Origin: Chloroflexota bacterium
GTDB taxonomy: Bacteria; Chloroflexota; Anaerolineae; Anaerolineales; UBA4823
Reading direction: 5' to 3'
Assembly: GCA_037443025.1 (NCBI GenBank)
Contig: JBBIPD010000001.1
Location: 1 to 39,022 of the forward strand
Length of the DNA: 39,022 bases
Positions 355 through 15,213 of this stretch are shown in pieces. Within the stretch, counting starts at the first letter, position 1. Each line of letters opens with the position of its first letter. Below the pieces are notes generated by a model. The model was not told where the DNA came from. It saw only the letters and a program-made list of their open reading frames with translations, and made no database searches. A program made the position numbers and the translations under genes.

Positions 355-400
355 CGAGCTGGAGCCTGACCCAAAACGCCGCATGGAGAGTGAATAACCA

Positions 401-772: not shown

Positions 773-810
773 TGCCCCTCAGAGGTTGCCTTGCCGCCCG
801 GATACCTGCC

Positions 811-2079: not shown

Positions 2080-2094
2080 GGTTTCCGAAGAGCC

Positions 2095-2129
2095 AGGGTC
2101 TACCCTTGAAGCGATTTAGGGTAGACCCT
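2095..2129. repeat. Inverted pair of the GGGTCTACCC motif (12-bp arms AGGGTCTACCCT / AGGGTAGACCCT, 11-nt spacer)
   Basis: Core copies lie at 2096-2105 (forward) and 2119-2128 (reverse). This is the first of four clusters of the same motif bracketing the antirepressor-parA-RHH module. Confidence 0.85.
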
Positions 2130-2184
2130 TATTCGCCCATCGCCTGGAGCGAGGGGAGCGGGAGCCTTTAAATGCGAACTATTG

Positions 2185-2193
2185 TGCTATAAT
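2185..2193 (+). promoter_or_regulatory. Candidate extended -10 promoter (TGCTATAAT) upstream of the antirepressor-like gene
   Basis: A perfect TGnTATAAT lies about 97 nt upstream of ATG 2290. It is followed by an imperfect hairpin GGGGATGTCCA..TGGACACCCC (about 2201-2229) in the leader. Confidence 0.4.
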
Positions 2194-2289
2194 CACCTGA
2201 AGGGGATGTCCATAATGGACACCCCCTTTAGGCGGCATTCTCAAACCACAGCGACAAGCTTCCTGTTTTCAATGTAGAGAGGAAACCCG

Positions 2290-3153
2290 ATGGACAACAT
2301 GCCTGTCTTCCCCTTGCAACCGCTCAGAGAGCGCAGTTTTGTGTTTCGGGGAAAAGAGATCAAAACCGCTGACCTGCCCGATAACCAGGGCTATGTTTCA
2401 TTTTATAGTCTGTGCGACGCCTTTGGTTTGGATCGGCGGGCGCAGAAAAAAAGATTGGAACGCCAGGGCGGTTATTTTCGCGAGTACACTGCCCTGATCA
2501 CGCTCTCCACCCCCGGCGGTCCGCAGGCTACCCTGTGCCTGCTGGCGGCGGCGGTGCCGCTTTTTCTGACCGGCGTGCAGTTGGAGCGGGTGGCAGATGT
2601 GCAAGCGCGCGAGCTGTTGCGCGCCTTCCTGGATGAGGCTTTGGATGTGCTGGCAGAGCATTTTGGCATCTCGGAGCGCGGCGAGATGCGCTTCCTGCGC
2701 GAGGCGGTGGCGCGCATGGTGGCGGAGCAGGAGGCTTTTGATGCCCGCATTGAGGGCATCGAAAAAAAAGTAGAGGCGGAGCTGGCGGAGATTCGCCAGG
2801 CGCAGGATGAGAAGGTGCAGCAAATCCGCGAGGCCTTTGCCGGGCTGCGCGGAGAAGTGCGCCAGATTGGCGGACCCAAGGAACGCCTGACGCCTGAGCA
2901 GCTGGGTCAGCTCCGCGAGACGGTCAACACCCTGGGGGTGATGCTGCAAGAGCTGGGTGAAACGAACCCCTACGCAGGGATTTACGCCTCCATCTTCCGC
3001 ATGACCGGCATTGCCCGCTCGGAGCATATAGCCCAGCAGGATTTCCCGCGCGTGCTGGCGTTTCTGGACAAACAGATTGAAGCGGTGAGCAAGCGGCTGG
3101 AAGCGCAACGAGCGAAGAACTCAACTGAAGCCGGTGAGACCGATAGCCGTTAA
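2290..3153 (+). CDS. Phage antirepressor-like protein (P22_AR N-terminal-like domain, coiled-coil middle, ORF11CD3-like C-terminus)
   Basis: The N-terminus FVFRGKEIKTADLPDNQGYVSFYSLCDAFGLDRRAQKKRLER...GGPQATLCLLAAAVPLFLTGVQLERV follows the P22 antirepressor N-domain pattern, recalled from memory. The middle is rich in E/A/R/Q heptads. GAGAGG SD sits upstream of the ATG. Confidence 0.55.
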   Translation: MDNMPVFPLQPLRERSFVFRGKEIKTADLPDNQGYVSFYSLCDAFGLDRRAQKKRLERQGGYFREYTALITLSTPGGPQATLCLLAAAVPLFLTGVQLERVADVQARELLRAFLDEALDVLAEHFGISERGEMRFLREAVARMVAEQEAFDARIEGIEKKVEAELAEIRQAQDEKVQQIREAFAGLRGEVRQIGGPKERLTPEQLGQLRETVNTLGVMLQELGETNPYAGIYASIFRMTGIARSEHIAQQDFPRVLAFLDKQIEAVSKRLEAQRAKNSTEAGETDSR

Positions 3154-3180
3154 CTGTCGAGTCAGCAGTAAATAAACATC

Positions 3181-3209
3181 AAGGGTCTACCCTTTGTGGG
3201 TAGACCCTT
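3181..3209. repeat. Perfect hairpin-forming inverted pair of the GGGTCTACCC motif (AAGGGTCTACCC tttgt GGGTAGACCCTT)
   Basis: Core copies lie at 3183-3192 and 3198-3207. The 12-bp arms are perfect, and the pair starts 28 nt after the stop of 2290-3153. Confidence 0.85.
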
Positions 3210-3241
3210 GATGTGATCTCGGGCATGCTGCGCTCCTGGAG

Positions 3242-3309
3242 ATGCGGGGCTGTGATGACCCCGCATGTGGGGATTGGGGTGAAGATGCGGGGTCATGGCG
3301 ACCCTGCAT
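3242..3309 (+). repeat. Two tandem hairpins (ATGCGGGG..CCCCGCAT at 3242-3266; ATGCGGGGTC..GACCCTGCAT at 3285-3309), 43-nt period
   Basis: Direct repeat of AGATGCGGGG...CATGTG units, each internally palindromic. Non-coding position. Confidence 0.6.
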
Positions 3310-3343
3310 GTGTCGCATTATAGCACGCGGGGCATACTTGCGG

Positions 3344-3367
3344 AGACCTCTCAAGAGGTTTTTTTTC
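3344..3367 (+). terminator. Intrinsic terminator-like stem-loop followed by a T8 run
   Basis: Sequence is AGACCTC tcaa GAGGTTT followed by TTTTTT. The T-run is only on the plus strand. It lies about 190 nt downstream of the 2290-3153 stop. Confidence 0.5.
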
Positions 3368-3386
3368 CAGCCGGGTATAAAGCGTA

Positions 3387-3406
3387 GAACAGGCTTTAGC
3401 CTGTTC
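3387..3406. repeat. REP-like palindrome GAACAGGCT tt AGCCTGTTC
   Basis: Perfect 9-bp arms. It has the same architecture as AACCGGCT tt AGCCGGTT at 33653-33670. Confidence 0.6.
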
Positions 3407-3466
3407 ACACCATAAGAATTCAGGCTGGTGGGGGAGCGCCTTTCAGCGGGCTTTCTGCGGCTTTAT

Positions 3467-3558
3467 GGGTCTACCCTTATTTTCTCTTTGGGTAGACCTT
3501 TTAGGGTCTACCTTGACAAAATATAGGTAGACCCTGTATAATGCCTTTGGGTCTACCC
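3467..3558. repeat. Iteron-like cluster: five alternating-orientation copies of GGGTCTACCC
   Basis: Copies lie at 3467-3476 (forward), 3490-3499 (reverse, 9/10), 3504-3513 (forward, 9/10), 3525-3534 (reverse, 9/10) and 3549-3558 (forward). Confidence 0.85.
3513..3542 (+). promoter_or_regulatory. Near-consensus sigma70-type promoter TTGACA-18 nt-TATAAT embedded in the iteron cluster
   Basis: TTGACA lies at 3513-3518 and TATAAT at 3537-3542. One motif copy (3525-3534) sits in the spacer and others flank both hexamers. The promoter points toward parA (ATG 3901). Confidence 0.55.
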
Positions 3559-3593
3559 TTGATAAACGTTCGGCGCCTTTTCCGCGATCGCTT

Positions 3594-3823
3594 TTCCCCT
3601 CCTGCTCCCCGGGGTGGGGGAGGGGAAAGGATTCACCGCTGAGACGCAGAGAACGCGGAGGTTAAAGATCAATGCTGAGTAAGCTGAGTTTTTATGTAAT
3701 CCCTCCGCCACATGGGCATCGAATGAATTCGACGCCTGATATGGAAAACAGGCTGAAGCATGTTGGAATCTGTAACCCGTTTCAACGGGTTTGGGGATGG
3801 CAGCCCGCAATTCATTCGCGGGC
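3594..3823. repeat. Cluster of short REP-like hairpins in the parA leader
   Basis: Four hairpins: TTCCCCTCC..GGAGGGGAA (3594-3627); GCATCGAAT ga ATTCGACGCC (about 3716-3736), an inverted copy of the element at 33579-33602; AACCCGTT tc AACGGGTT (3774-3791); GCCCGC..GCGGGC (3803-3823). Confidence 0.55.
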
Positions 3824-3900
3824 GATGCGCTAGCCACATGCACGGCGCTGAAAAAACCCTGCGCGCTTTGTAAACTCTGTGGTAAAAAAAGGATTTTTTT

Positions 3901-4689
3901 ATGACGGTTTTTGCGGTTGTCAATCAAAAAGGCGGGGTGGGCAAGACGGTGACCGCGGTCAACCTGGCGCACGGTTTCGCCCTGCGCGGCTATCGCACCC
4001 TGTTGGTGGACCTCGACCCGCAGGGCAATGTCGCCGACTGCCTGGGGCTTCCCCCCGGCAATGACCTCTACCGCCTGATCTTCCCCGACGACGCGGTGCG
4101 CCTGCCCCTGGCGCTGGCAGCCTGCGGCAGCGGTCGGGAGAACCTGGACGTGGTGCGCTCCGACCGCTCCAGCGCCAATCTGAAGGTCGCCATCGGCTCG
4201 CTGCCCGGACCGCGCGAGTTCATCCTGGATGATGTCCTGGTCAACGCGCCCTACGAGGTCGTCATCCTGGATTGCGCCCCCTCGGTGGACATTTTGCACA
4301 CCCTGGCGGTGGTGGCGGCGCACTATCTGCTCATCCCCACCCGCCTCGACCAACTGGCGGTGAAGGGCGTGCGGGATATGCTCGCCACGCTCAAGTCGCT
4401 GGAGCGGGTGACCACCTGCCAGCTCGGCGCCATCATCCCCACCTTTTACGACCGCACCACCAACGAGAGCTACCTGCAGCTCAAGCACCTGGTGAAGAAT
4501 TTTCAAAACTACGTCTGGCCTCCCATCCCCCAGGACGTGGTCTGCCGCGAGTCCACCCGCTTCGGCAAGACCCTGTGGGAATACGCCCCCAACACGCGCG
4601 CCCTGACCGGCTACACCGATCGGGCGGGGAGGTTGATTGGCGGCTACCGCCAGATCGTTGAGCGGGTGGAGGAAGGATTGATGCAATGA
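3901..4689 (+). CDS. parA: ParA/Soj-family partition ATPase (262 aa)
   Basis: Deviant Walker A VNQKGGVGKTVTAVNLA, then LLVDLDPQGN, then Walker B-like VILDCAPS. The stop overlaps the next start (ATGA at 4686-4689). Confidence 0.9.
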   Translation: MTVFAVVNQKGGVGKTVTAVNLAHGFALRGYRTLLVDLDPQGNVADCLGLPPGNDLYRLIFPDDAVRLPLALAACGSGRENLDVVRSDRSSANLKVAIGSLPGPREFILDDVLVNAPYEVVILDCAPSVDILHTLAVVAAHYLLIPTRLDQLAVKGVRDMLATLKSLERVTTCQLGAIIPTFYDRTTNESYLQLKHLVKNFQNYVWPPIPQDVVCRESTRFGKTLWEYAPNTRALTGYTDRAGRLIGGYRQIVERVEEGLMQ

Positions 4690-5141
4690 GCCCAGCCAAG
4701 CGCCAGCCCAAGGACGATGAAGACAGCTTCATCCGTTTTGAAGAAGCGCCGCCCATGCCCGACCCCGCTGTGAGCGCCCTGTTGGCGCGCACCGAGCGCC
4801 GCCAGGCGGAGGCGCACCTGAGTCACAAGGAGCGGGAGAAGAAGAAGAAAGAGCGGGAGAAGATCCGCGCCCGCCGTCCCTATCACACCACCTATGACCT
4901 GCCGGTGGAGTTGCGCCAGCGCATCAAGGAACTGGCGGAGCAGCACGGCGTGCCTGCCAGCCAGCTCGCCACCCTGGGTTTGCTGCGCTTTGTGGAGGAC
5001 CTGGCGGCGCGGCGGCTGGACCTGACGGCGCATAAAGTGCCCTCGCGCAGCCCGCGCTACGACTTCAACCTGGTGATTTCGATGGAAGAGTACCCCGCCA
5101 CCTTTGCCGTCCCGCGGCGGGGCAAGAGGAAGCAGTCTTAG
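4686..5141 (+). CDS. Ribbon-helix-helix (CopG/ParG-like) protein, putative centromere-binding partner of ParA (151 aa)
   Basis: Translationally coupled to parA. It has a K/E/R-rich N-terminal tail. The RHH pattern is TTYDLPVELRQRIKELAEQHGVPASQLATLGLLRFVEDL (beta strand plus two helices). The stop codon abuts a GGGTCTACC motif. Confidence 0.6.
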   Translation: MSPAKRQPKDDEDSFIRFEEAPPMPDPAVSALLARTERRQAEAHLSHKEREKKKKEREKIRARRPYHTTYDLPVELRQRIKELAEQHGVPASQLATLGLLRFVEDLAARRLDLTAHKVPSRSPRYDFNLVISMEEYPATFAVPRRGKRKQS

Positions 5142-5165
5142 GGTCTACCTTATAGGGTAGACCCT
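5140..5165. repeat. Inverted pair of the GGGTCTACCC motif at the 3' end of the partition module
   Basis: Copies lie at 5141-5150 (forward, 9/10) and 5155-5164 (reverse), with a 4-nt gap between the cores. It overlaps the TAG stop at 5139-5141. Confidence 0.8.
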
Positions 5166-5223
5166 GAATCGCGGTTTGCAAAACTTGAGATGCGCCTTCC
5201 CCAATCGGATTATAATCAACCCT

Positions 5224-5505
5224 ATGGACAGGGATTTGCTCATCCAGCGCCTGCAAGTAGCTTTATCCGCCGTTCCGGGCGTTTGCCTGGGATACCTGTT
5301 TGGCTCGCAGGTGGGTGAGGCGACCGGTCCGATGAGCGACGTAGATTTAGGCGTTGTGCTGGAGGGCGCTGAAGGTAGTCTCGAGGTCCAATCGGCGCTG
5401 TCTCACCAATTGGGAAAGGTGGTCCAGCCGTTGCCCATTGATGTGATTCTTCTCAGAGATGCGCCGAAAGACAACCTTGACAACCCAGACCAGGAGTCGC
5501 GATGA
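5224..5505 (+). pseudogene. MNT-type minimal nucleotidyltransferase, apparently C-terminally truncated (93 aa)
   Basis: GYLFGSQVGEATGPMSDVDLGVVL matches the GS-x9-12-D-x-D polymerase-beta-type NTase motif. The usual C-terminal helix after IDVILLRDAP is replaced by KDNLDNPDQESR. The ORF ends in an ATGA overlap with the next gene. No HEPN partner is present. ATG 5224 is preferred over the track start 5176. Confidence 0.5.
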
Positions 5506-6155
5506 CAGACGTTCAACCTGAAGGATATCTCGCTCTGCCCCATGCGGGCGAGGGTCCGGGCGTGCTGGTGCTGCACGCCTGGTGGGGCTTGAGCGACGCC
5601 ATCAAAGATTTTTGCGACCGGCTGGCAGGGGAGGGTTTCACGGCATACGCGCCCGATCTGTACCACGGCAGCCTGGCGAGCAGCATCGCCGAAGCCGAGG
5701 CATTGAGGGACGAACTGGATTTGAACGCGGGGCGCGCCGAAGCCGATATTGCCCAGGCGGCGGATTATCTCAGCCGGCGCGCCCAACCGCCAGGGGGCGG
5801 GATGGGTGTGGTGGGGTTCTCGCTGGGCGCCTACTATGCGCTCAAGTTTTCGGTGGAAGCTCCCCAGCTCGTGCGCGCCGTGGTGCTATTCTATGGCAGC
5901 GGCGGAGGGGATTTCAGCCAGGCGCGGGCGGCTTACCTGGGGCACTTCGCCGAGAATGACCCCTATGAGCCGCCGGAGGCGGTGGACTGGCTGGAAGGAG
6001 AGCTTAAATCCGCCGGTCGTCCGGCGACATTCTATCGTTATGCCGGCGTGGGGCACTGGTTTTGCGAGCCAGATCGCCCCGAGGCATACAACGAAGCCGC
6101 CGCCCGGCTCGCCCGGCGACGGACGGTGGAATTTCTGCGGGAGGCGCTTGAATAG
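5502..6155 (+). CDS. Dienelactone hydrolase family protein (217 aa)
   Basis: Has GVLVLHAWWGL, the nucleophile elbow VVGFSLGAYY and a C-terminal GVGHWF histidine, as in the alpha/beta-hydrolase DLH family. Confidence 0.8.
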   Translation: MTDVQPEGYLALPHAGEGPGVLVLHAWWGLSDAIKDFCDRLAGEGFTAYAPDLYHGSLASSIAEAEALRDELDLNAGRAEADIAQAADYLSRRAQPPGGGMGVVGFSLGAYYALKFSVEAPQLVRAVVLFYGSGGGDFSQARAAYLGHFAENDPYEPPEAVDWLEGELKSAGRPATFYRYAGVGHWFCEPDRPEAYNEAAARLARRRTVEFLREALE

Positions 6156-6378
6156 AGAAAAGGGCATTTCGTATAGTATATTCGCATAGCCATTTACCCC
6201 CAACAGAGACGACAAGCAGTCAACAGACACGCGCAGCATAAGGTAAATCAAACAGGCGCAGTTCCCGACCGGTTCCTCCAAGCGCGTCGCGAGAGCGATC
6301 GTATCAATCTACCCTAGCATTATGGAGAATGGGTGGGTCGAATTTCTTTTAATCCGTTAAGGTATCGTTAACCATATA

Positions 6379-6407
6379 TTGCAATATTATGACATTCATG
6401 GTAATAA
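6379..6407 (+). promoter_or_regulatory. Candidate promoter TTGCAA-17 nt-TAATAA in the AT-rich region ahead of the nine-gene operon
   Basis: TTGCAA lies at 6379-6384 and TAATAA at 6402-6407, about 100 nt upstream of ATG 6510. This is a hexamer match only. Confidence 0.3.
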
Positions 6408-6509
6408 TAGACAGATTTCTCAAAGCGGCAACACCGATCGCCGCCCAGGCGCCGATCGAGTGCGATTTCTCAGCCTGTTCTCTCTCAATAGTTGATATGG
6501 AGGCAAAAT

Positions 6510-7043
6510 ATGGGTAAAGGCGGCGATGTAGACATGGATGTGGATGCAAATATCGATTCGTCGAACAGCGTCGAAATCGTCGGGTTGGACGATATCGGGA
6601 TGCGCATGGAGCTCGTTGTCCCTGAGCCAATCCGCACCGAAGGGCGCAACGAGTTTGCCATCACCGAGCCAATCCGCATGCAGAATGAAATCTCAGCCGA
6701 TCTGGATGTTGATACCACCATGGATATCAAGCCTATCCAGCTCAGCAACGATATAGACCTGGATATCCGACCGGTGGTGATGGATCTGTGCTTCAAGCTG
6801 GAATTTGGCGCACCCCCGCCCACCTGCATTCGCCAGCCCTATAGCCACCACTTCGGAATTACCCTGTTCGGCATGGAGGTGCTGGGGTTCAACTTTTCAG
6901 GCGAATCGCGCATCATCGTGGATGAACTGCCCAAGAAACCGCAGGTCGTCCTGGGAGGCAGCCATGGCGGCAAGCATGTCGCCGGCGGTCGCTCGCAGGG
7001 GAAAAGCGGTTCCGAGGACAGTCTGCGGATTCGATTCGATTAG
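6510..7043 (+). CDS. Hypothetical acidic-repeat protein (177 aa), first gene of the operon
   Basis: GGAGG at 6499-6503 lies 6 nt before ATG 6510 (track ORF starts at 6492). The N-terminal half is Asp-rich with internal repeats (VPEPIRTEGRNEFA / ITEPIRMQNEISA; DLDVDTTMDIKPI / DIDLDIRPV). The C-terminus is Gly/basic. There is no signal peptide or TM helix and no family I can name. Confidence 0.6.
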   Translation: MGKGGDVDMDVDANIDSSNSVEIVGLDDIGMRMELVVPEPIRTEGRNEFAITEPIRMQNEISADLDVDTTMDIKPIQLSNDIDLDIRPVVMDLCFKLEFGAPPPTCIRQPYSHHFGITLFGMEVLGFNFSGESRIIVDELPKKPQVVLGGSHGGKHVAGGRSQGKSGSEDSLRIRFD

Positions 7044-7054
7044 GAGGCGCAGCC

Positions 7055-7888
7055 ATGCCTGCCAAGAAGAAAGTCGCCGGTGTTGAAGCCGTGGAGAGCC
7101 CGGGCGAAAAGCCCATTATCTTGATGGGGCAGCCGGGCGCTCTCAAGGGCGAGTTGTTCCTGCACAATCCAGGAGAAGGGCGCATGGTCTTCAGAGGGGC
7201 TGAACTGCGCAGCCGTGAAGCGGAGATGCTCAAAACAGGTCGGGCGGTGGAGCAATGGATGGTCTCGCGCAAAGTGCCTGCCGTGACCGTCAAACCGGGC
7301 GAGAGGCGGCGCGTCCCACTGCGCTTTGCCCTCGACCCCACCACACCCCCCGGCGAGTATCACGCCCTGCTCCAGATGGCAGACCGAAGCTGGCAAGTTA
7401 TTTTCCAGGTGACCGAGCGCATCGCTCTCGAAATCTCCCCCGCCGTGCTGGTGATTCATAATCGTCCTGGCTCCACCGCGGTCAAGCAAATCGTCCTCAG
7501 GAATGCCGGCAATGTCGAACTGACCATTGAGGAAATCTCAGCCGTCCCCCTGGACGACGAGCTAGTCCAGTGCCGCATCCTCAGGGCGGTGGCGGCGGCG
7601 ATTGGCTCTCAGGAGGAGAGCAAGCTGGATGACATCCTGACCGAGTTTGCCCATCAGTCCAAAGCCGTCCTGGACCAGGCTGGCATCCTGCGCGTGCGCA
7701 ATCGCTCCGGCAGATTTACCTTGCAGCCGGGCGAAGTGCGCCGCATCGAAATCGAGATACGGCTGCCCGAGTCGTTAGAAAAACGCAGCCGCTATCGAGC
7801 CGTTCTTCCAATCTACAACGCCGATCTCACCTTCTCCATCACCCCGTCATTAGAAGGTCAGGCGCCCAATAAACCCGCAGGAAACTAG
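7055..7888 (+). CDS. Hypothetical protein with two beta-sandwich-like modules (277 aa)
   Basis: AGGAGG at 7042-7047 overlaps the upstream stop. Strand-turn patterns are typical of Ig-like/ASH/CARDB-type domains (VTVKPGERRRVPLRFALDPTTPPGEYHALL; VKQIVLRNAGNVELTIEEIS; FTLQPGEVRRIEIEIRLP). No signal peptide. Confidence 0.6.
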   Translation: MPAKKKVAGVEAVESPGEKPIILMGQPGALKGELFLHNPGEGRMVFRGAELRSREAEMLKTGRAVEQWMVSRKVPAVTVKPGERRRVPLRFALDPTTPPGEYHALLQMADRSWQVIFQVTERIALEISPAVLVIHNRPGSTAVKQIVLRNAGNVELTIEEISAVPLDDELVQCRILRAVAAAIGSQEESKLDDILTEFAHQSKAVLDQAGILRVRNRSGRFTLQPGEVRRIEIEIRLPESLEKRSRYRAVLPIYNADLTFSITPSLEGQAPNKPAGN

Positions 7889-7953
7889 CTCCCCCTGCAA
7901 AGTCGCTCGGTCTGGAATCCGACAGAAGACGATATTCATTTGAGAGGTGGCGT

Positions 7954-8676
7954 ATGGATGACCAACATGAACAATATAGAACTCGCAGGGGGGCAAGGAT
8001 GTCCGGCGAGGGACCAACCGCGGCAGATTTGCTCGAACAAATGAATCAACTCAACCAGACGATATCCACCATGATTATGGCTGGCTTGAACCAGATTCTG
8101 GCGGCGGGCGGGGCAGCGACCACCGCCCCAGGTCGCAGGCGGGGCGAGCCGGAGCGCGAACACCGCCATAAACGCAGACACGAGGAGTGCTGCGACTGCC
8201 CGGAATGCGAGCGGGATGAGTGCTACTGCCGCTGCTGCATTGGCGACGCCGACCTGGTGATTTACGCCCGATTGTTTGAGCTGCGCGTGATTCCCATCAC
8301 TCTGGTCAACGAGCGCCGGCGAGAGAAGAAAATTCATCTAGAGCTGAGCGAGTTTAAAACCCGCGGCGGGGAGACCCTGGGCGTGAGAGGGGTGCTCCTG
8401 CCGCCGGTTGATTTTACGCTCCCGCCTTGTGGAGAGCAGAAGATCGTCATCGCCGTCGAGACCTTCCCCGGCGGCGAACAGCCCGGCGCTCAAGGCGTCT
8501 CCAGATTTCAGACCGCGGCGGAGGCGCGCGAGCTCCCGGATGTGGATGAATGTAAGGTGCTGTACGCCGATTTGCGCGTGGAGGGCTGCGATATCCGCCC
8601 CATCCGCATCGCCCTGGCGCTCCTTCCCCGCGACTGCGACGATTACGAGATTGACTGCGGTTGTAGCTGCTGCTGA
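7954..8676 (+). CDS. Hypothetical cysteine-rich protein (240 aa): helical N-terminus, Cys cluster, beta-sandwich-like core, C-terminal CGCSCC
   Basis: GAGAGGTGG SD lies just upstream. There are 8 Cys within 17 residues (CCDCPECERDECYCRCC) and 4 Cys in the last 6 residues. The core is paralogous to the middle of the 9796-10839 product. Confidence 0.65.
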   Translation: MDDQHEQYRTRRGARMSGEGPTAADLLEQMNQLNQTISTMIMAGLNQILAAGGAATTAPGRRRGEPEREHRHKRRHEECCDCPECERDECYCRCCIGDADLVIYARLFELRVIPITLVNERRREKKIHLELSEFKTRGGETLGVRGVLLPPVDFTLPPCGEQKIVIAVETFPGGEQPGAQGVSRFQTAAEARELPDVDECKVLYADLRVEGCDIRPIRIALALLPRDCDDYEIDCGCSCC

Positions 8677-8749
8677 GCGCCGAGGTAGCCCGCAGACTGC
8701 CCAATTCAGATAGCCGTCCGCTCTTGCGGGTCGGCTTGCCACAGGAATC

Positions 8750-9778
8750 ATGCAAACCAACCGTTTGGAATCCTACCTGGCAGAGTGCCGGGAGATGGTG
8801 CTGGAGGAGATTCGCGAGATTGTGCCGCAAAATCGCTATCGGGCGATTTTGTACGATCTGATTCTGGATTACCCTCTGCGCATGGGCAAAGCCTTCAGAC
8901 CTGCGCTGTGCATTGCCACCTGCCGCGCTTTGGGAGGGCGCTTGCAGGATGTCATTCACACTGCGGCGGTCCTGGAATTGCTGCACAACGCCTTCCTGGT
9001 GCATGATGATCTGGAGGATGGCTCTCTGCTGCGCCGCGGCTCTCCGACTCTGCACCAGGAATACGGCGTACCGATTGCGGTCAATGTGGGCGACGGCGCC
9101 TTTGTGCTTACCCTGCAACCCTTGCTGGATAATATGCGCCTGCTGGGGATGACCAAAGCCCTGCGCATCTTGCAGATTATCGCCCAGATGTCGCGGGAGT
9201 CGGTCGAGGGGCAGGCAGTCGAACTGGACTGGGTGCGCCAGGGCAATTGGAGCCTGCGCGACCAAGATTACTGCCTGATGGTCTATAAAAAAACCTGCTG
9301 GTACACATTCATCGCTCCCATGCAAATCGGCGGTGTGATTACCGACCTGGACGAGCGACGGATGACTTTACTGCGGCGCTACGCGAGCTACGTGGGCGTG
9401 GCGTTCCAGATACAGGATGATGTGCTTAACCTGGCGGCAGACGAGAAACGTTACGGTAAGGAGATTGGCGGCGATCTGTGGGAGGGCAAGCACACTTTGA
9501 TCTTGCTCCACATGTTGCGCAACGCTGCCCCACACGAACGTCAGCAGGCGCTGCGCAGCCTGGATAAGCCGCGCGAACAGAAGACGGAGACGGATATTGC
9601 CTTGCTTTTCGAGCTGATCCATCGCTATCGCAGCCTGAATTACGCCAGACAGGTGGCTTATCGCCTGGCAAAGAAAGCCGAAGACCTGTTGGACAGCGCC
9701 AGGGATTGGATGCCGCCGTCCGTCCATCGGGATTTCATCCACAGCATGGCGCAGCATGTCATTCACAGGGACAAATAA
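8750..9778 (+). CDS. Polyprenyl (trans-isoprenyl) diphosphate synthase, short-chain FPP/GGPP-synthase-like (342 aa)
   Basis: The first Asp-rich motif is LLHNAFLVHDDLEDGSLLRRG and the second is GVAFQIQDDVLNL (DDxxN variant). GKEIGGDLWEGKHT lies downstream. Phe at position -4 of the first motif suggests a short-chain product (inference). Confidence 0.85.
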   Translation: MQTNRLESYLAECREMVLEEIREIVPQNRYRAILYDLILDYPLRMGKAFRPALCIATCRALGGRLQDVIHTAAVLELLHNAFLVHDDLEDGSLLRRGSPTLHQEYGVPIAVNVGDGAFVLTLQPLLDNMRLLGMTKALRILQIIAQMSRESVEGQAVELDWVRQGNWSLRDQDYCLMVYKKTCWYTFIAPMQIGGVITDLDERRMTLLRRYASYVGVAFQIQDDVLNLAADEKRYGKEIGGDLWEGKHTLILLHMLRNAAPHERQQALRSLDKPREQKTETDIALLFELIHRYRSLNYARQVAYRLAKKAEDLLDSARDWMPPSVHRDFIHSMAQHVIHRDK

Positions 9779-9795
9779 AATAACAAGGAATTTCT

Positions 9796-10839
9796 ATGAC
9801 CCAGGACCCTGAAGACATTTCAAAATGGATCCAGGAATTGATCACCCTCTCCTCCCGCCAGCAGGCTCAGGCTCTCCAGCGGTTGAGCGGGCTGATTCAG
9901 CGGGTGAACAGCGGCGAACTCGACCAGAAGGCGGTGCAGCAGGAATACGCCCACTTCATCCGCGATGAATCGGCGCACTTTGTGGAGGATCTCACCCGCC
10001 TGGGATTGAGCTTCCAGACCGCTCTGCTGGAGCTGAACCGCAAATATACCGACCGATTTTTCGAAAAGGTGTTGGGGTCGAGCGCGGCTGAAACTCAGAC
10101 CGCTGACGGACAGACCGGGCGACCCAGAGAAATCGGGATTGTGCTGCGCGGCGTGAGCGGCGAGGAGCTGTTGAAATCCTTCGTGATTGAGAACAAGCGC
10201 AACGACGAGGAGACGGTGACCTTCCTGGTCTCCGAGTTCACCGACGAGGTCGGCGGGGAGGCTTTTCGCCCGCCGTTGCAAATTCAGCCGCCGCGCCTGG
10301 CGCTGCGTCCGGGGGAGGAGCGCATCGTGTCCATCCGTTTGCCTCTGCTGCCCGAGCTGTTTAAGGCGCAGCACACCTATCATGCAACCATCCTTGCCCG
10401 CGGGCATGTAGATGTGGTCCTGGCGCTGCGGGTCGAGGTGAGCAGTCCCGAAATCCATATCAAAGTGGACAAGGAAAACAGCCAGAGCGTCGAGCCGGGG
10501 ATGGTCATCCACGAACCTCCCGCCACGGAGAAGAAACCTGCCCGGAGCGCTGCCCTGGAGGGGAACGGCGGGGTATCCACTGGCGATGATCTGACCCAAA
10601 TCAAGGGCATCGGTCGGGCGTACGCAGAGAGGTTGTATGCGGCGGGCGTGCGCAGCTTTGCCGCTCTTTCCAGGCTGTCGCCTGAGCGGCTGCGGGAGAT
10701 ATTGGGAGACGCCGGCAGTCAGCGGGCGCAGCGGGAAGGATGGATCGAGCAAGCCATGCGGGCGACAGGGGGCAAAAAGGCTGGCAGGGGAGGGTTGCAG
10801 CGGCAGGCGGCTTCAGGCTCGAAGGGGGAGGTCGAATGA
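9796..10839 (+). CDS. Hypothetical protein: helical N-terminus, beta-sandwich-like middle, C-terminal helix-hairpin-helix (347 aa)
   Basis: The middle (VIENKRNDEETVTFLVSEFTDEVGGEAF..PPRLALRPGEERIVSIRL) parallels the 7954-8676 core. The C-terminal LTQIKGIGRAYAERLYAAGVRSFAALSRLSPERL is an HhH motif. The tail is Gly/basic. Confidence 0.65.
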   Translation: MTQDPEDISKWIQELITLSSRQQAQALQRLSGLIQRVNSGELDQKAVQQEYAHFIRDESAHFVEDLTRLGLSFQTALLELNRKYTDRFFEKVLGSSAAETQTADGQTGRPREIGIVLRGVSGEELLKSFVIENKRNDEETVTFLVSEFTDEVGGEAFRPPLQIQPPRLALRPGEERIVSIRLPLLPELFKAQHTYHATILARGHVDVVLALRVEVSSPEIHIKVDKENSQSVEPGMVIHEPPATEKKPARSAALEGNGGVSTGDDLTQIKGIGRAYAERLYAAGVRSFAALSRLSPERLREILGDAGSQRAQREGWIEQAMRATGGKKAGRGGLQRQAASGSKGEVE

Positions 10840-11234
10840 CCACCGAAACCGAACCGGCTGCCATCCGCCTCACCCTGCGCGAGGAGAACGACCTCATCTC
10901 GGATTTTCTGCTCCGGGGACAGCGCTTCCTGATGAAGCACCCGCAGGCATCGCGGGCTTTGATTTTGAGCCTGGTGGAAGAGGGGCGCCGCTTCGCCGCC
11001 ACGCCCGAGGGGCAGCGTTGGCTGGAGGGGCTGGCTGGCTCCGAGCTGGTCAAGCGCGGCGTTCTCGTCTGGGAGGCTTACGGCTTGGACCTGCTGTTGG
11101 AATCGGAGCCGGTGATCACCCCCTCCGCCTGGCTGGAGCTGATGCTGACGGCGCTTGCCAACCCCGACCTGGAGAGCCTCCTCTCCATGCTGATTGTAGA
11201 AGAAATGCGCAGTGGAAATGTCGCCAATATATGA
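10836..11234 (+). CDS. Hypothetical small helical protein (132 aa)
   Basis: ATG 10836 overlaps the upstream TGA (ATGA), with GGGGGAG SD. The track ORF start 10740 lies inside the preceding gene. No recognisable family. Confidence 0.5.
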   Translation: MTTETEPAAIRLTLREENDLISDFLLRGQRFLMKHPQASRALILSLVEEGRRFAATPEGQRWLEGLAGSELVKRGVLVWEAYGLDLLLESEPVITPSAWLELMLTALANPDLESLLSMLIVEEMRSGNVANI

Positions 11235-11541
11235 ACTGCTTCCGGCTTTCAAGGAGCGTAATCAGCTCATCTTTCTGGTGTTGGGCTTGTATTCTGTAAG
11301 CCAGGAGTGGAAACGCCTGCTGGAGGCGCAGGCGCAGAGCGCGCCGCTGCCTCCGCAGACAGAGGCTCCTTTGGAGCAGGAGGATAACAGTCGGGGATTT
11401 GTGTATTTCCTGCTCGGAACAATCGCTTTTTCTGACCGCTTTGCGCGCGCCCTGGACATCGAAAGGATGATCGCCGCCGCGGCGCGGGTCGCAGACCAAC
11501 CCCTCGCTGATTGGGGCGATGTTTTCGATCTTCTGCGTTGA
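11212..11541 (+). CDS. Hypothetical small protein (109 aa)
   Basis: Overlaps the previous gene by 23 nt (17 nt if ATG 11218 is used). No recognisable family. Coding status rests on operon context only. Confidence 0.4.
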   Translation: MEMSPIYELLPAFKERNQLIFLVLGLYSVSQEWKRLLEAQAQSAPLPPQTEAPLEQEDNSRGFVYFLLGTIAFSDRFARALDIERMIAAAARVADQPLADWGDVFDLLR

Positions 11542-11556
11542 GGCAAGGATAGACCG

Positions 11557-12606
11557 ATGGACCTGATGCCCCAGGTGATTGCCCTGACCGATTACTTCCG
11601 CCTGCCGCTCAGCATCGAGAAGGGAGCCCACCGGCATAAAGAGTGGCACCACTTTTGCGTTGTCCATCCCGCTATCCAGGCGATAGTCAATCTGAGCCTG
11701 ATGCGGGCTGCCGGAAATGAGGCGGGCTGGACTGCGCGCCTGATCGCTCTGGTGAAGGACGAGGGCGGGTGGGACGGGGAGGTGGACACCATCCCCAGCC
11801 GGGATGTGCGCGCCAGGCGGGGGAAGCTCGACCTCACCTTTGGGCACAACACGCTGATTTACCAGGATGGGCGCTACAATCTTTCGTTGGCGCTGGAGAG
11901 CCGTCCCATCACCCTGCAACTCCAATTCCAGCCAGCCAGCTACCCGCTTATGCGGCGCAATACGCCCATAGCAAGCGGAAGAATCAACTGGGTTGTTGTG
12001 CCGCGCCTGCTCGCGACGGGGACGATTGTGGTTGGGCGGCGCGTGCATCGTCTGGATAACATGCCCGCCTATCACGATCACAACTGGGGGAGTTGGTCGT
12101 GGGGAGAAGATTTCTCCTGGCAGTGGGGGTATGCCGTCCCGCAGCAAATTGAGTCGCCCTGGAGTGTGGTCTTTGACCGCATGACGAACCGCGGGCGCAA
12201 CGCTGTCCTGGAGTTGAAGCTCTCCTTATGGAAGAACCAAAAGCTGCACCGGCTGTACATGCAGGATGAAGTTGGCATCCAGCAAAGCGGTTTTGTCACC
12301 CAAACCCGCCAGGGCGGTTTCGCCGGGGATGCTCGGCTGGCGAAGTTCCCCCGCCCAATGGCGCTGCTGGCTCCCGAGCGGGCGACGGATGTGCCTCGCC
12401 GGTTCGAGATAACGGCTGAGCGCGGCAGCGACCGGCTGGCGTGTCGCTTCATGCCGGATGATGTGGCGCAGATTATCCTCCCCAACGATACCGACCTGGG
12501 CGTGACCATCATCAACGAGGTGAGCGGGGTGATGAGCGTGGAGGGCGCGGTATCCGGTGAAGCGGTTTTCATGGAAGGCAGGGGATTTTTTGAGTTTCTT
12601 ACCTGA
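11557..12606 (+). CDS. Hypothetical protein, possibly lipocalin-like CrtC/AttH/tocopherol-cyclase superfamily (349 aa)
   Basis: HKEWHHFCVV near the N-terminus and MPAYHDHNWGSWSWGEDFSWQWGY mid-protein recall the EWWY... and (D/E)xNWG signatures of that superfamily. This comes from memory, not a profile search. Confidence 0.6.
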   Translation: MDLMPQVIALTDYFRLPLSIEKGAHRHKEWHHFCVVHPAIQAIVNLSLMRAAGNEAGWTARLIALVKDEGGWDGEVDTIPSRDVRARRGKLDLTFGHNTLIYQDGRYNLSLALESRPITLQLQFQPASYPLMRRNTPIASGRINWVVVPRLLATGTIVVGRRVHRLDNMPAYHDHNWGSWSWGEDFSWQWGYAVPQQIESPWSVVFDRMTNRGRNAVLELKLSLWKNQKLHRLYMQDEVGIQQSGFVTQTRQGGFAGDARLAKFPRPMALLAPERATDVPRRFEITAERGSDRLACRFMPDDVAQIILPNDTDLGVTIINEVSGVMSVEGAVSGEAVFMEGRGFFEFLT

Positions 12607-13036
12607 TAGCGACCGTTTCTCTCATTTCTTGCGGGCATCGTTGGATGTGATGCGGGTCGAGTGCCGCCCTGCTTATGAGCGGTTATGCGAGCTTCTGGAG
12701 GGCAGGCAGGTGCATCTTGCGGTGGACGGCGAGGAGGTCGTTCTCGGTTTTGCCGCAGACGGCGTTACCTTGCTTTCCGAAGCGACGCTGCCCCCGATGG
12801 CGAAGTTGTCGTTCTCCCGCCGGACGATTCTCGACCTGGTGGATGGGTCTATCAGCCTCCAGGATGGCATCATCGAAGGGCGAGTGGGAGTGCAGGGAGG
12901 CATCCAGCAGTTGCTGCTGTTTCACGAGGGTTGGTTGACCTATCTGGGCGGTGCCGCCCGTTGTCCCTCGTTTCCCTACCTGCTTGAGCGCTTCCGCTAT
13001 GCAACAGAGAGGGCGGCGAGTCCGCTGGGGGTGTAG
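12557..13036 (+). CDS. SCP2-like (sterol/lipid carrier) domain protein (up to 159 aa)
   Basis: VHLAVDGEEVVLGFAADGVTL....SFSRRTILDLVDGSISLQDGIIEGRVGVQGGIQQLLLF follows the SCP2 pattern (..tl.dl..G.l....a...G.v.v.G). The start is uncertain: GTG 12557 gives a 50-nt overlap, TTG 12590 a 17-nt overlap, and ATG 12650 is also possible. Confidence 0.5.
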   Translation: MKRFSWKAGDFLSFLPDSDRFSHFLRASLDVMRVECRPAYERLCELLEGRQVHLAVDGEEVVLGFAADGVTLLSEATLPPMAKLSFSRRTILDLVDGSISLQDGIIEGRVGVQGGIQQLLLFHEGWLTYLGGAARCPSFPYLLERFRYATERAASPLGV

Positions 13037-13063: not shown

Positions 13064-14146
13064 TCATTCCTCCAGTGTAACTTTACCGATATAACGGAAA
13101 GCCCCCGGGGTGACGCCCAGGCGCTCCGCCAGGCGGTAGCTGAGGAGCTGCACCGGGATAATCTCTGCCAGGGGTAGCCCGGCTCCCTCCGCCTGGGGCA
13201 GGGGCAGATAGCCCTCGCCCGCCTCTTTCTGCGAGATGTCGAGCAGGCGGGCATTCACCCCCAGTTTACGCAGTTCTTCCCACAACTTGCGGTTCAGCCT
13301 CCAGGCGCTGGAGCCGGGTTCGCCGGCGAAGACCCAGGCGCCCATCTCCGGAGATGCCATCTCCAGCGGACCATGGCGGAATTCGCCCGCCTGGAAACCC
13401 AGGGCAGGCGTCTTGGCGGCTTCCTGCAGGTAGAGAGCGCCGCAGAGGGCAGAAGCCAGAGAACTTCCGCGACCAATCAGGGCGATGGTCGGCGGGACGC
13501 CGGGCGGGAGTTTCTCCAGAAAACCATCCATCTGTTCCAGGGCGCTTGCTCGCTGGTCCAGGTAGTATTCAATTGCCTCTGCTGCGGCGGATAAATCGTG
13601 GAGCAGGTCAGCCGCATCTGCGCCGGTAAGCAGCGCCTGGGCGGCGAGTTGAGCGAGCGCCAGAGTGTTGAGGTAGGTGCGGGTGGAGACGGTGGCTTCT
13701 GGCTGTGTATGGAGCAAGAGGAGCTGTCCGTTTTCCCACTCCTGGGCGGCTTTTCCCAACGGACTGTCGGGGTCATTGGTCAATGCCAGCAGCGCCGCAA
13801 CGCGTCGCTGACCGGCGAGGCGCACCAGGCTCACCACCTCGGCGCTGCGCCCGGATTGCGAGGCAACCCAGAGGAGCGTTGCGCCATCTAAGAGCGCCGG
13901 GGCATGGTGAATCAGCTCAGCCGTGTCCACCCACAGCGCTGGAAGCCCGGCGGATGCCAGGCGCAGCCAGGCAGGATAAAGCCCATAAAACGAGGCGCCC
14001 ATTCCGCTCAGGATGAGGCGACCATAGCGCCCGCCATCCAAATCTTTACGTAAGGGTTCCAGGGACGAAAAGTCGCAGGATTTCAATGCCAGGCGCAGCG
14101 CTTGGGGTTGGCTGAGAATATCGGCGAGGTAAGGGTTCATAGACAT
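13064..14146 (-). CDS. SIS-domain sugar-phosphate isomerase/deaminase (GlmS C-terminal-like; AgaS/FrlB/NagB-II type), 360 aa
   Basis: Two SIS modules (LILSGMGASFYGL; VASQSGRSAEVVSL; ALIGRGSSLASA). The start is 2 nt after the ROK stop. Confidence 0.8.
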   Translation of the reverse strand: MSMNPYLADILSQPQALRLALKSCDFSSLEPLRKDLDGGRYGRLILSGMGASFYGLYPAWLRLASAGLPALWVDTAELIHHAPALLDGATLLWVASQSGRSAEVVSLVRLAGQRRVAALLALTNDPDSPLGKAAQEWENGQLLLLHTQPEATVSTRTYLNTLALAQLAAQALLTGADAADLLHDLSAAAEAIEYYLDQRASALEQMDGFLEKLPPGVPPTIALIGRGSSLASALCGALYLQEAAKTPALGFQAGEFRHGPLEMASPEMGAWVFAGEPGSSAWRLNRKLWEELRKLGVNARLLDISQKEAGEGYLPLPQAEGAGLPLAEIIPVQLLSYRLAERLGVTPGAFRYIGKVTLEE

Positions 14147-14148
14147 CT

Positions 14149-15213
14149 TCAGAATGGGGGCTGAATTTCCAATTGGGGATGGTGGATGGCTTGGAGCAGG
14201 GCATAGGCTGCCCCATAGACGCCGGCGTAATATCCCAGTCGGGCGGGCAGGATGTGCACCCTCTCGATCGGCAGGTAGGCGGAGGCGGCGTGTTGCATCT
14301 CATTCAGGGCTGGCATGAACAGGTCGCTGCTGTGCATCACGCCCCCGCTCAATACGATCACCTCTGGGAAGAAGAGCATCAGGATATTGAAGACGCCCAA
14401 TGCGAAGGCTTTTGCCGCCTGCTCAATCACCCCTCTGGAGAGCGGGTCGCCCTGACGGGCTGCTTTGCACACCAGGCGGGCGTCTATCCTGTCCACCTCT
14501 CCCCCGGCGAGTTTGAGCAGGGCTGTTCCAGCCTCGGGTGCGGCTTTCAGGGCAGAGCGCCCCATGCGCCCAATCGCGCTGCCGCTGCACAGGCTCTCCC
14601 AGCAACCCCGCCCCCCGCAGTAACATTCTGGACCGGAGGGGTCAACAATTTGGTGACCACCTTCGGGGTGAAAGCCGTCTGCGCCGCGCACCACCTGCCC
14701 GTCGAGGATAAACGCAGTCCCGATGCCGGTGCCCACTGTGATGGCGTACAGGCGCCGTACGGGCGGGATGCCAGCCTGGGTGGGGTGCCCGACGCCCTGC
14801 CAGTATTCCCCCAGGGCGGCGGCGTCGGCGTCATTCTCCAGGCATACCGGGGTGTGAAAGCGGTCTTGCAGATGGGCGACAATCGGCACGTTCAACCAGC
14901 CTGGCATCGTCCCAGGGTTGACGAGCAAGCCGCGGCGTGAATCGACTGGTCCGGTAGAGCCGATTCCAATCCCGAGCAGGCAACGCCTGTCCAACTCTGC
15001 CTGATGGAGCAGGTTTTCAACCAGCGAAGCGATGCGCTCCAGCCCGGCGTCTGGACCTTCCTCGGCGCGAATCTCGCCTTCCAGGCTGGAAATGAGCGCC
15101 CCATCTGGCTGGAATGCTCCCAGGCGGATGCGGGTCGCGCCCAGGTCCATCCCAATGACGAATTCAGGGGGATTCTCTTTTCTGGCGTTGATGGAAGTTG
15201 CCATGTCGCTCAA
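14149..15213 (-). CDS. ROK-family sugar kinase (354 aa)
   Basis: VIGMDLGATRIRLG is the ATP-binding N-terminus, GIGIGSTGPVD follows, and CYCGGRGCWESLCSG is the ROK zinc motif. Confidence 0.85.
   Translation of the reverse strand: MSDMATSINARKENPPEFVIGMDLGATRIRLGAFQPDGALISSLEGEIRAEEGPDAGLERIASLVENLLHQAELDRRCLLGIGIGSTGPVDSRRGLLVNPGTMPGWLNVPIVAHLQDRFHTPVCLENDADAAALGEYWQGVGHPTQAGIPPVRRLYAITVGTGIGTAFILDGQVVRGADGFHPEGGHQIVDPSGPECYCGGRGCWESLCSGSAIGRMGRSALKAAPEAGTALLKLAGGEVDRIDARLVCKAARQGDPLSRGVIEQAAKAFALGVFNILMLFFPEVIVLSGGVMHSSDLFMPALNEMQHAASAYLPIERVHILPARLGYYAGVYGAAYALLQAIHHPQLEIQPPF

Follow-up and report, generated by a model that had tools for sequence, protein, structure and literature searches.

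A nine-gene operon in an Anaerolineales contig combines isoprenoid-type enzymes with a conserved core of unannotated proteins, a candidate scaffold system

Analysis of a 39,022-nucleotide stretch of DNA from a Chloroflexota bacterium (Anaerolineales, UBA4823; assembly GCA_037443025.1, contig JBBIPD010000001.1, positions 1 to 39,022; hereafter called the window) revealed a block of nine plus-strand genes at 6510-13036. These genes are designated O1 to O9 in their order, and related loci on other contigs carry L-numbers. The operon consists of two modules, an enzyme module (O4, O6, O7, O8, and O9) and a core (O1, O2, O3, and O5) whose proteins have, as judged from their sequences, no recognizable catalytic domain. 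Across genomes the core holds its order next to changing enzyme genes, and the tail of one core protein, O5, is exchanged between lineages. We tentatively propose that the core forms a nucleoid-tethered protein scaffold or coat, of a new type, for a hydrophobic isoprenoid product; we put the chance of this somewhat below even.

Recurrence of the gene set and exchange of partners around the core

A listing of the open reading frames (ORFs) recovered all nine genes reported in a preliminary description of this DNA:

6510..7043, plus strand: O1, acidic repeat protein, 177 amino acids (aa) (alignments; no family match)
7055..7888, plus strand: O2, two tandem immunoglobulin (Ig)-like sandwiches, 277 aa (AlphaFold2, predicted local distance difference test [pLDDT] 75)
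7954..8676, plus strand: O3, cysteine-rich Ig-like protein, 240 aa (alignment of 12 orthologues)
8750..9778, plus strand: O4, trans-isoprenyl diphosphate synthase, 342 aa (Pfam polyprenyl_synt)
9796..10839, plus strand: O5, helical N terminus, Ig-like sandwich, and helix-hairpin-helix tail, 347 aa (Pfam, alignment)
10836..11234, plus strand: O6, acidic protein of no known family, 132 aa (start overlaps the O5 stop, ATGA)
11212..11541, plus strand: O7, protein of no known family, 107-109 aa (positional equivalents in other loci)
11557..12606, plus strand: O8, distant AttH/CrtC/tocopherol-cyclase-like protein, 349 aa (recurrent weak profile matches)
12650..13036, plus strand: O9, SCP2-like lipid binder, 128 aa (SCP2 profile, subthreshold in the window)

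Fifty-three loci were gathered from contigs with selected homologues, from one scan of species-representative genomes, and from one metagenome scan. After removal of near-duplicates 42 loci remained, all of them from metagenomes or metagenome-assembled genomes (MAGs). Within this nonredundant set, O2 directly followed O1 in 30 of the 31 loci with room for it, and O3 followed O2 in 23 of 24 testable loci. Both O4 and O8 were present in 16 of the 19 loci with enough downstream sequence. The complete nine-gene order occurred with entirely different flanks in L006, L014, L021, L022, and L053. If the fast-diverging O7 is disregarded, it was also present in L015, L038, and L041. The flanking genes varied from locus to locus. 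The preliminary description had made its reading of the block depend on whether the unknown genes are conserved together with the synthase gene. Over the 42 loci they strongly were, and these counts exclude a chance juxtaposition. The named sources, all MAGs, were Anaerolineae, Actinomycetota, two Gemmatimonadaceae, one genome labeled Burkholderiaceae, and a 2.3-kb contig labeled Bifidobacteriaceae, and the core order was fixed across MAGs labeled as at least three to four phyla.

The O1-O2-O3 set, usually together with O5, behaved as a unit joined to varying partners. The following arrangements were found, with ACP standing for acyl carrier protein, PKS for polyketide synthase, SDR for short-chain dehydrogenase/reductase, and WS/DGAT for wax ester synthase/diacylglycerol acyltransferase:

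L002 and L008: core facing a divergent set of O4, an Ig-like 150-aa protein, an O6-like protein, O8, an O9-like protein, and WS/DGAT; L002 has LytB and a methyltransferase in addition
L013 and L016: core with ACP, LytB, O5, O6, O8, (O9), O4, an acyltransferase, and a B12-radical-SAM enzyme
L051, similar to L013 and L016: O1, O3, LytB, O6, O8, and O4; no O2 or O5 detected
L038 and L039: the canonical nine genes, then a methyltransferase and WS/DGAT
L017 and L018 (Gemmatimonadaceae): core beside a type I PKS (KS-AT-KR-ACP-MT); no O4 or O8
L040 and L043: core, then a large DUF362 protein and an SDR/epimerase
L011: O1 and O2 only, next to Tc toxin genes

The L011 pair (568-1759) encodes a divergent O1-like protein of 120 aa and an O2-like protein of 261 aa, with no O3 or O5. 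Directly downstream of it (2372-11471) lie genes for TcA/TcB-binding-domain, SpvB, and RHS/YD shell proteins. A 409-aa protein without a Pfam match (77-80% identity) adjoins the core-only loci with DUF362 and SDR genes (L040, 10234-11463; L043, 8593-9813; L048, 236-1456; L049, 1250-2470) and may be a further partner of the core.

The same operon is present on two contigs from a single sample (ERZ25072999), which differed in that L020, when compared with L021, had two opposite-strand DUF1670 genes between O4 and O5 (13350-14938). Transposase genes were located just upstream of O1 in both, and an IS66 transposase gene was located upstream in L006 and L007. The DUF1670 insertion and the upstream transposases suggest that the block may move or may be targeted by mobile elements. 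No relatives were found on IMG/VR viral contigs (searched for O1 and O2) or on plasmids (searched for O2 and O8). Readings of the block as an anti-phage defense system, a phage element, a riboswitch-controlled unit, or a plasmid trait were dropped as unsupported, the PADLOC, PHROGs, and Rfam searches being empty like those of the viral and plasmid sequences.

Proteins of the core and of the enzyme module

Searches of Pfam, NCBIfam, PHROGs, and PADLOC revealed nothing significant for O1, O2, O3, O6, O7, and residues 1-226 of O5, and profile searches against PDB sequences with O1, O2, O3, O5, and O6 yielded nothing meaningful. The preliminary description had left six of the nine proteins without a family. 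This held for O1, O2, O3, O6, O7, and the front of O5 but not for the O5 tail, and the accompanying statement that no DNA-binding-type motif was present was contradicted by the helix-hairpin-helix domain of that tail, which scored above the Pfam cut-off. The beta-sandwich modules suspected in three of the proteins were recovered in O2 by a structural model and fold search and in O3 and O5 by profile comparison. No hydrophobic segment of transmembrane or signal-peptide strength was detected in any of the nine proteins; the lack of transmembrane helices, already noted in the preliminary description, supports a predicted cytoplasmic location. Among the papers searched for similar gene sets and for the CxCxCC motif, none described this system. 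O1, O2, O3, and O5 appear to be four families without a described relative, and the core is rated here as categorically new, with a function that is hypothetical.

O1 starts with a Gly/Lys N terminus (MGKGG) and has an acidic N-terminal half (pI 4.05) with GLDD. Its homologues contain one to four copies of the repeat [VLI][PT][EDQ]P[IFL]xT[EQ]. A conserved segment, HHFGxTLFGxExxGF, was modeled as a beta hairpin, and the basic tail ends in GLRIRxx in almost all homologues. The 73 homologue clusters included none with a name or a Pfam domain. The AlphaFold2 model of O1, built from 36 sequences, reached a pLDDT of 37 and contained a single long hairpin at residues 105-137.

The AlphaFold2 model of O2, which is of moderate confidence, predicted two Ig-like domains at residues ~21-119 and 125-264, the second with a helical hairpin insert at 171-209. 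The LDDEL..C motif is invariant in O2, and one or two invariant cysteines are present in each of O1 and O2. Homologues of O2 formed only 27 clusters among 5.8 billion proteins, with no informative names. Foldseek matched the O2 model to generic Ig-like multidomain folds of scaffold type with E values of 1e-8 to 1e-5 and low TM-scores, among them Hydin-like ciliary proteins, CEP192 SPD-2, RbmA, and pilus chaperones. No capsid fold was found for the model in a viral structure library.

Alignment of 12 O3 orthologues revealed a variable N terminus followed by a beta-sandwich between two CxCxCC motifs, CYCRCC at residues 90-95 and CGCSCC at the extreme C terminus. Thirteen cysteines were invariant across the 12 orthologues. 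The C-terminal motif ended the protein in nine of them and was followed by one or two residues in the other three. Profile comparison showed homology between the sandwiches of O3 and O5 (hhalign probability 93.9%, E value 1.5e-7), and a weak likeness was observed between O2 domain 1 and the O5 sandwich (probability 41%).

O5 consists of a helical region (~1-100), the Ig-like sandwich (~110-215), a linker, the helix-hairpin-helix (264-312), and a basic end. Residues 264-312 matched HHH_5 with 37.3 bits (cut-off, 27), and DUF4332 was also matched. Comparison of the orthologues showed that the N terminus and the sandwich are conserved and that the tail differs between lineages:

Helix-hairpin-helix tail: window, L006, L014, and L021 (alignment) and L053 (Pfam annotation)
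Histone-H1-like tail, Lys/Ala/Pro-rich: L015 (net charge, +27) and L016 (+15)
Shorter basic tail: L013 (net charge, +7)
Zinc ribbon plus basic tail: L002 and L008
No tail: L022, L017, and L018

Positions 133-230 of the PhaH model NF045508 matched O5 residues 227-322 (E value, 1.4e-7). The full-length PhaH score of O5 was 31.9 bits against a cut-off of 250, and no phasin family was found on residues 1-226. PhaM, PhaF, and PhaH bind polyhydroxybutyrate (PHB) granules with their N termini and DNA, nonspecifically, with their C termini; the DNA-binding part is histone-like in PhaM and PhaF and a helix-hairpin-helix in PhaH (PMC13052382, a 2025 review). Because the tail alternatives of O5 match those of PhaM, PhaF, and PhaH, O5 appears, by analogy, to be built like an inclusion-to-nucleoid tether with a front unrelated to phasins.

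The enzymes of the second module were classified, from their profile matches, as divergent members or relatives of known superfamilies. O4 residues 38-280 matched polyprenyl_synt (PF00348) with 206.1 bits (cut-off, 27; E value, 6.6e-61). The first Asp-rich motif is DDLED, and its DDxxD pattern was kept in 10 of 10 orthologues. The second motif (window 9440-9460) reads DDVLN, and all 10 orthologues had DDxLN with Asn as the last residue, a signature of this clade in place of the usual DDxxD. The third Asp of the second prenyl synthase motif is the least critical one, and O4 is for this reason likely active. Ala at -5 and Phe at -4 of the first motif are conserved in the orthologues. The best NCBIfam models for O4 were IdsA, geranylgeranyl diphosphate synthase, and family 2 encapsulin cargo, all far below their cut-offs. 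O4 is probably a short-chain synthase.

O6 matched nothing in Pfam, NCBIfam, or, by profile search, PDB sequences. Orthologues of O6 were present in 14 of 19 tabulated loci, and the rearranged locus L002 encodes a weak homologue of 188 aa (28% identity; E value, 3e-4). O7 contains an 11-residue hydrophobic stretch (LIFLVLGLYSV) and diverges fast: most loci have an ORF of 70-115 aa at its position, and tblastn detected only the closer relatives.

O8 by itself matched DUF2804 with 19 bits (cut-off, 26.9). Among 55 members of the O8 family, weak matches to DUF2804 (30 members; best E value, 3.2e-5), Tocopherol_cycl (28 members; 1.2e-5), and CrtC (4 members; 0.0098) were obtained. Neither O8 nor the 55 scanned relatives reached a curated cut-off for any of these three families. 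O8 is therefore described as a distant relative of the AttH/CrtC/kievitone hydratase/tocopherol cyclase group rather than as a filed member, the matches being recurrent yet subthreshold. Residues W145, Y172, H173, and D174 were invariant in 55 sequences, and the N176-W177-G178 that comes after them is highly conserved. Enzymes of this group act on isoprene double bonds by hydration or cyclization, the AttH family by hydration (PMC4717167; bioRxiv 10.1101/2025.10.20.683597), and an AttH-like enzyme was recently shown to add water to the isoprenoid chains in tetraether lipids of archaea (bioRxiv 10.1101/2025.10.20.683597). CrtC requires His239, Trp241, Tyr266, and Asp268, and the Asp has been proposed to protonate the isoprene double bond as the acid (PMC4717167). 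The Trp and the Tyr-x-Asp-type motif of O8 resemble these catalytic residues, and the O8-family profile weakly matched the CrtC-domain structure 7a0q, pairing W145 with Trp and D174 with Asp; no counterpart of His239 was found. Unlike the pathways of that group, the operon contains no carotenoid or homogentisate pathway genes, and none for an aromatic-ring pathway.

The O8 family comprises 523 or more representative clusters. Some O8 relatives (P0132, P0157, P0192, P0257, P0261, and P0268) are longer, with 474-513 aa (~150 aa extra), and a fused SCP2 domain was detected in four of the 55 family members scanned. This form resembles a natural O8-O9 fusion and supports a predicted functional link between O8 and O9. 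For O9, the SCP2 (PF02036) score was 18.6 bits in the window, 20.9 bits for the L014 orthologue, and 23.2 bits for the L022 orthologue, the last above the cut-off of 21.3 bits. The three products recognized in the preliminary description held up, O4 by its Pfam score, O8 as a distant relative with recurrent weak matches to DUF2804 and Tocopherol_cycl, and O9 as an SCP2-like protein with an above-threshold orthologue in L022. No UbiA-type or ABBA transferase and no protein prenyltransferase was found among the operon proteins in Pfam or NCBIfam.

Proposed function, related systems, and alternatives

In the proposed scheme, O4 would condense isopentenyl diphosphate with an allylic diphosphate to a short prenyl diphosphate, probably C15-C20. 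O8 would protonate an isoprene double bond, so that the chain would be hydrated or cyclized, as the chemistry of its family and the conserved Asp motif suggest, and O9, an SCP2-type binder, would carry the hydrophobic intermediate or product. The core proteins would assemble a cytoplasmic scaffold or coat that collects the product. O2, O3, and O5 would provide Ig-like building blocks, the largely disordered and repeat-bearing O1 would act as glue, and cross-links through metal or disulfides would come from the cysteine motifs of O3. O5 would fasten the body to the nucleoid with its helix-hairpin-helix tail, the role that PhaH has for PHB granules.

The support for this scaffold is circumstantial. 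The order of the core is fixed while its enzyme partners change, and the core joins various enzyme sets for lipids or hydrophobic metabolites. It has no enzyme signature; O2 is predicted to be Ig-like and of scaffold type, the O3 and O5 sandwiches are paralogous, and the O1 repeats vary in number. The architecture of O5 is similar to that of PHB-granule nucleoid tethers, an argument by analogy. The chemistry assigned to the enzyme module is supported by isoprene hydration in the AttH family and by the O8-SCP2 fusions. The idea of isoprenoid packaging or scaffolding had been put forward in the preliminary description as a hypothesis; the modular core and the tether-like build of O5 favor it, but an amphipathic-helix signal was missing and the O1 model was too poor to contribute.

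Several observations weigh against the scaffold. No amphipathic helix above shuffled controls was detected in any of the nine proteins, so that classic phasin- or perilipin-style surface binding was discarded as unsupported, and searches of Pfam and NCBIfam revealed no phasin domain and no match to a lipid droplet protein family. The window contains no WS/DGAT gene. Some partners are not obviously related to lipids, namely, the DUF362 and SDR genes and the Tc toxin genes beside O1 and O2 in L011. The DNA-binding-type tail of O5 is absent in several lineages, 13 invariant cysteines in O3 would be unusual for a structural role in the reducing cytoplasm, and the O1 model (pLDDT 37) is uninformative.

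PHB granules, WS/DGAT droplets, plastoglobules, and family 2 encapsulins are the closest systems by function, and their defining features were not found where these were looked for. As with PHB granules, a pathway for a hydrophobic product is encoded beside nonenzymatic surface proteins, which are putative in the operon, and a single protein would combine a body-binding N-terminal part with a DNA-binding tail, for which the O5 orthologues show, by analogy, the same alternatives. The operon differs in that a phasin domain is missing, the front and the Ig-like domain of O5 have no known match, and the granule product is a polyester whereas the chemistry proposed here is isoprenoid. It has three more core proteins without a counterpart, and no PHA synthase turned up in the operon, among the tabulated and scanned neighbors in the related loci, or in those parts of the remaining window that were scanned.

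For droplets of wax esters or triacylglycerol made by WS/DGAT enzymes, the likeness is that WS/DGAT genes adjoin the system in two arrangements (L002/L008 and L038/L039). The droplet proteins MLDS and TadA have basic tails that bind DNA or heparin, and basic tails are present on some O5 orthologues. The window itself differs from these systems in the missing WS/DGAT gene, in the lack of a match to a droplet protein family, and in the lack of a marked amphipathic helix. Plastoglobules of plastids and cyanobacteria are protein-coated bodies of neutral isoprenoid lipids whose surface bears methyltransferases and the tocopherol cyclase VTE1. The pairing of an O8-like protein with a UbiE-like methyltransferase in some loci recalls them by analogy only, and no fibrillin/PAP domain or UbiA prenyltransferase was detected in Pfam or NCBIfam.

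Family 2 encapsulins with polyprenyl transferase or terpene cyclase cargo provide a precedent for compartmentalized terpenoid synthesis (PMC8346489; PMC11550324). In both cases an enzyme for prenyl chains is encoded beside self-assembling, nonenzymatic proteins, the assembly being a proposal for the operon. O4 matched the encapsulin cargo model NF041169 with an E value of 1.7e-52 and 178.8 bits, below the 450-bit cut-off, and differs in having no cargo-loading extension. No encapsulin or capsid family was matched by the nine proteins in Pfam, NCBIfam, or PHROGs, and O2, the sole confidently modeled protein, is Ig-like rather than HK97-like. Pfam also revealed no BMC-H/T (PF00936) or BMC-P (PF03319) domain among the nine proteins. 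The encapsulin and microcompartment readings were rejected, as no shell family is present.

An alternative that we consider unlikely, although it deserves the most weight among those examined, is an ordinary soluble terpenoid gene cluster in which O4, O8, and O9 make a compound and the other proteins serve as carriers, chaperones, regulators, or self-protection, with no body or shell. The only confident enzyme is indeed a prenyl diphosphate synthase. The O8 family, with its 523 representative clusters, is larger than those of O1 or O2 and so may work outside this system, and the methyltransferase, B12-radical-SAM, PKS, ACP, and SDR neighbors are typical tailoring genes. However, four nonenzymatic proteins hold their order while the enzymes change, a behavior opposite to that expected from accessory proteins of a single pathway, and such a cluster leaves the exchange of DNA-binding-type tails in O5 unexplained.

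The C terminus of O3 raises the question of a lipidated protein. Its CxCxCC motif, invariant in the 12 orthologues and at or within two residues of the end, recalls the CC/CXC geranylgeranylation sites of eukaryotic Rab proteins. The neighboring enzymes could supply the lipid for a covalent prenylation or acylation of these cysteines, which would yield an anchored Ig-like assembly on a membrane or lipid surface, and a gene for lipid-donor synthesis (a prenyl synthase, a PKS, or ACP plus acyltransferase) is nearly always adjacent. We regard this as quite improbable: the transferases that it would need (protein prenyltransferase, ABBA, or UbiA type) were not detected in Pfam or NCBIfam, the equally conserved internal CxCxCC suggests a paired structural or metal site, and core-only loci have no prenyl synthase.

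The same 13 cysteines in CxCxCC clusters, together with the invariant cysteines of O1 and O2, could point to a metal or redox system in which O3 is metallothionein-like or binds an Fe-S or Cu-thiolate center and metal handling is linked to an isoprenoid quinone- or chromanol-like compound. The weak tocopherol cyclase matches of O8 and the UbiE-like methyltransferases nearby are consistent with this, and some loci adjoin a gene for CopC, a CusB-cupredoxin fusion, or ferritin/rubrerythrin. These metal-related neighbors nevertheless vary by locus and are not conserved, a UbiA-type prenyltransferase and an aromatic-ring pathway are missing, and O1, O2, and the tails of O5 would go unexplained, which makes such a system very unlikely. 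An extracellular or envelope fiber or coat of disulfide-cross-linked Ig-like subunits, comparable to endospore appendages or donor-strand pili and with the lipid enzymes remodeling the envelope, would fit the O2 fold matches (with pilus chaperones and RbmA, a protein of the biofilm matrix, among them), the cysteine-rich connectors on either side of the O3 sandwich, and the largely disordered O1, whose modeled long hairpin could add a strand to another subunit, but it is highly improbable given that no protein has a segment of signal-peptide or transmembrane strength, that no secretion, usher, or sortase family was found in Pfam or NCBIfam, and that a cytoplasmic location is indicated by the tails of O5, which are of a nucleic-acid-binding type.

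Returning to the nucleoid-tethered scaffold, a more far-reaching version, which we regard as rather doubtful, is that O1, O2, O3, and O5 are the building set of a previously unrecognized kind of prokaryotic inclusion, tethered to the nucleoid, into which different lineages plug isoprenoid, wax ester, polyketide, or acyl-lipid pathways. Such an inclusion would consist of Ig-like subunits paralogous to one another, a disordered protein with repeats, and a cross-linker with clustered cysteines, and it would be the lipid-side counterpart of encapsulins and microcompartments. If the core builds a body, this body would constitute a new class among bacterial compartments and inclusions, one encountered exclusively in metagenome contigs and MAGs. 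It would then be a natural chassis with swappable parts for the storage or channeling of terpenoids, wax esters, and polyketides and of interest for metabolic engineering. Even on a conservative view, the analysis defines four protein families without annotation (O1, O2, O3, and O5) and distinct clades of a prenyl synthase with a DDxxN second motif and of an AttH/tocopherol-cyclase-like enzyme. It also extends the swap between helix-hairpin-helix and histone-like tether tails to a system unrelated to PHB.

Operon boundaries, promoter region, and neighboring genes

All nine ORFs showed a coding-type base bias, with a GC content at third codon positions (GC3) of 0.64-0.80 versus 0.36-0.47 at second positions (GC2). 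The intergenic gaps from O1 to O9 are 11, 65, 73, 17, -4 (ATGA), -23, 15, and 43 nt, with the O9 start taken at 12650. The preliminary description had reported overlaps of the ATGA type, of 23 nt, and, between O8 and O9, of up to 50 nt, and the first two were recovered. The start of O9 is most likely the ATG at 12650 (128 aa) rather than 12557, because the exact 128-aa product is on the NCBI record and the same gene call was made in the 99%-identical contig L005; the third overlap is therefore probably not real. O7 may start at ATG 11218 instead of GTG 11212.

O1 is preceded by a 354-nt noncoding stretch with 46% GC, compared with ~60% for the region, which agrees with the AT-rich lead-in of ~350 nt noted previously. 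The convergent gene named in the preliminary description as the end of the block is an SIS-domain gene on the minus strand (13064-14146). A pattern scan revealed no convincing terminator inside the operon. The following features were located upstream of O1:

6354..6509, plus strand: conserved promoter/leader (alignment of five related upstream sequences; DNA similarity)
6355-6360 and 6366-6371, plus strand: direct repeat CGTTAA (invariant in the five related upstream sequences)
6379-6384, plus strand: -35-like TTGCAA (core invariant in the five)
6399-6407, plus strand: extended -10-like TGgTAATAA (mostly invariant in the five)
6499-6503, plus strand: Shine-Dalgarno GGAGG (seven bases 5' of the O1 ATG)

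The leader between the putative promoter and O1 is ~100 nt long. DNA similarity to L005, L006, and L007 begins at window position 6354, ~156 nt 5' of O1, and none was found further upstream. The pattern scan recovered the same promoter-like site, the total of its hits being not significantly above that of shuffled controls, and no Rfam family matched the promoter/leader region. The tight spacing and the single promoter-like leader, shared by five related sequences, uphold the single-operon reading of the preliminary description, and one transcription unit is the simplest interpretation of the sequence.

In L005, ~9 kb of extra genes (1-9300; GntR regulator, NIF3, an 846-aa protein, an ABC sugar transporter, peptidase S9, and GGACT) lie between a dienelactone-hydrolase gene and the operon. 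In the window the dienelactone-hydrolase gene (5502-6155) almost directly abuts the operon. Because L005 has ~9 kb at this place and the similarity resumes exactly at 6354, the comparison points to a strain-level insertion or deletion at the left edge of the operon.

Further upstream, the window contains mobile-element-like genes, namely, those for a protein with a P22 antirepressor N-terminal domain (2290-3153), a ParA/MinD-type ATPase (3901-4689), a 151-aa partner whose gene overlaps that of the ATPase (4686-5141), and a nucleotidyltransferase (5176-5505). They are probably unrelated to the operon because they do not occur in those related loci for which gene tables exist. For the same absence, the ParA-like gene, located 1.8 kb upstream, was dropped as a positioning partner.

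Downstream, the region ~19200-24000 forms an island of low GC content (45-50%, versus ~60% elsewhere in the window). Its genes, all on the minus strand, encode a GAF-domain histidine kinase (21224-23545), a response-regulator-like protein (20476-21261), and a small protein that weakly matches the N-terminal region of RNase Y (19742-20203). This island was possibly acquired horizontally.

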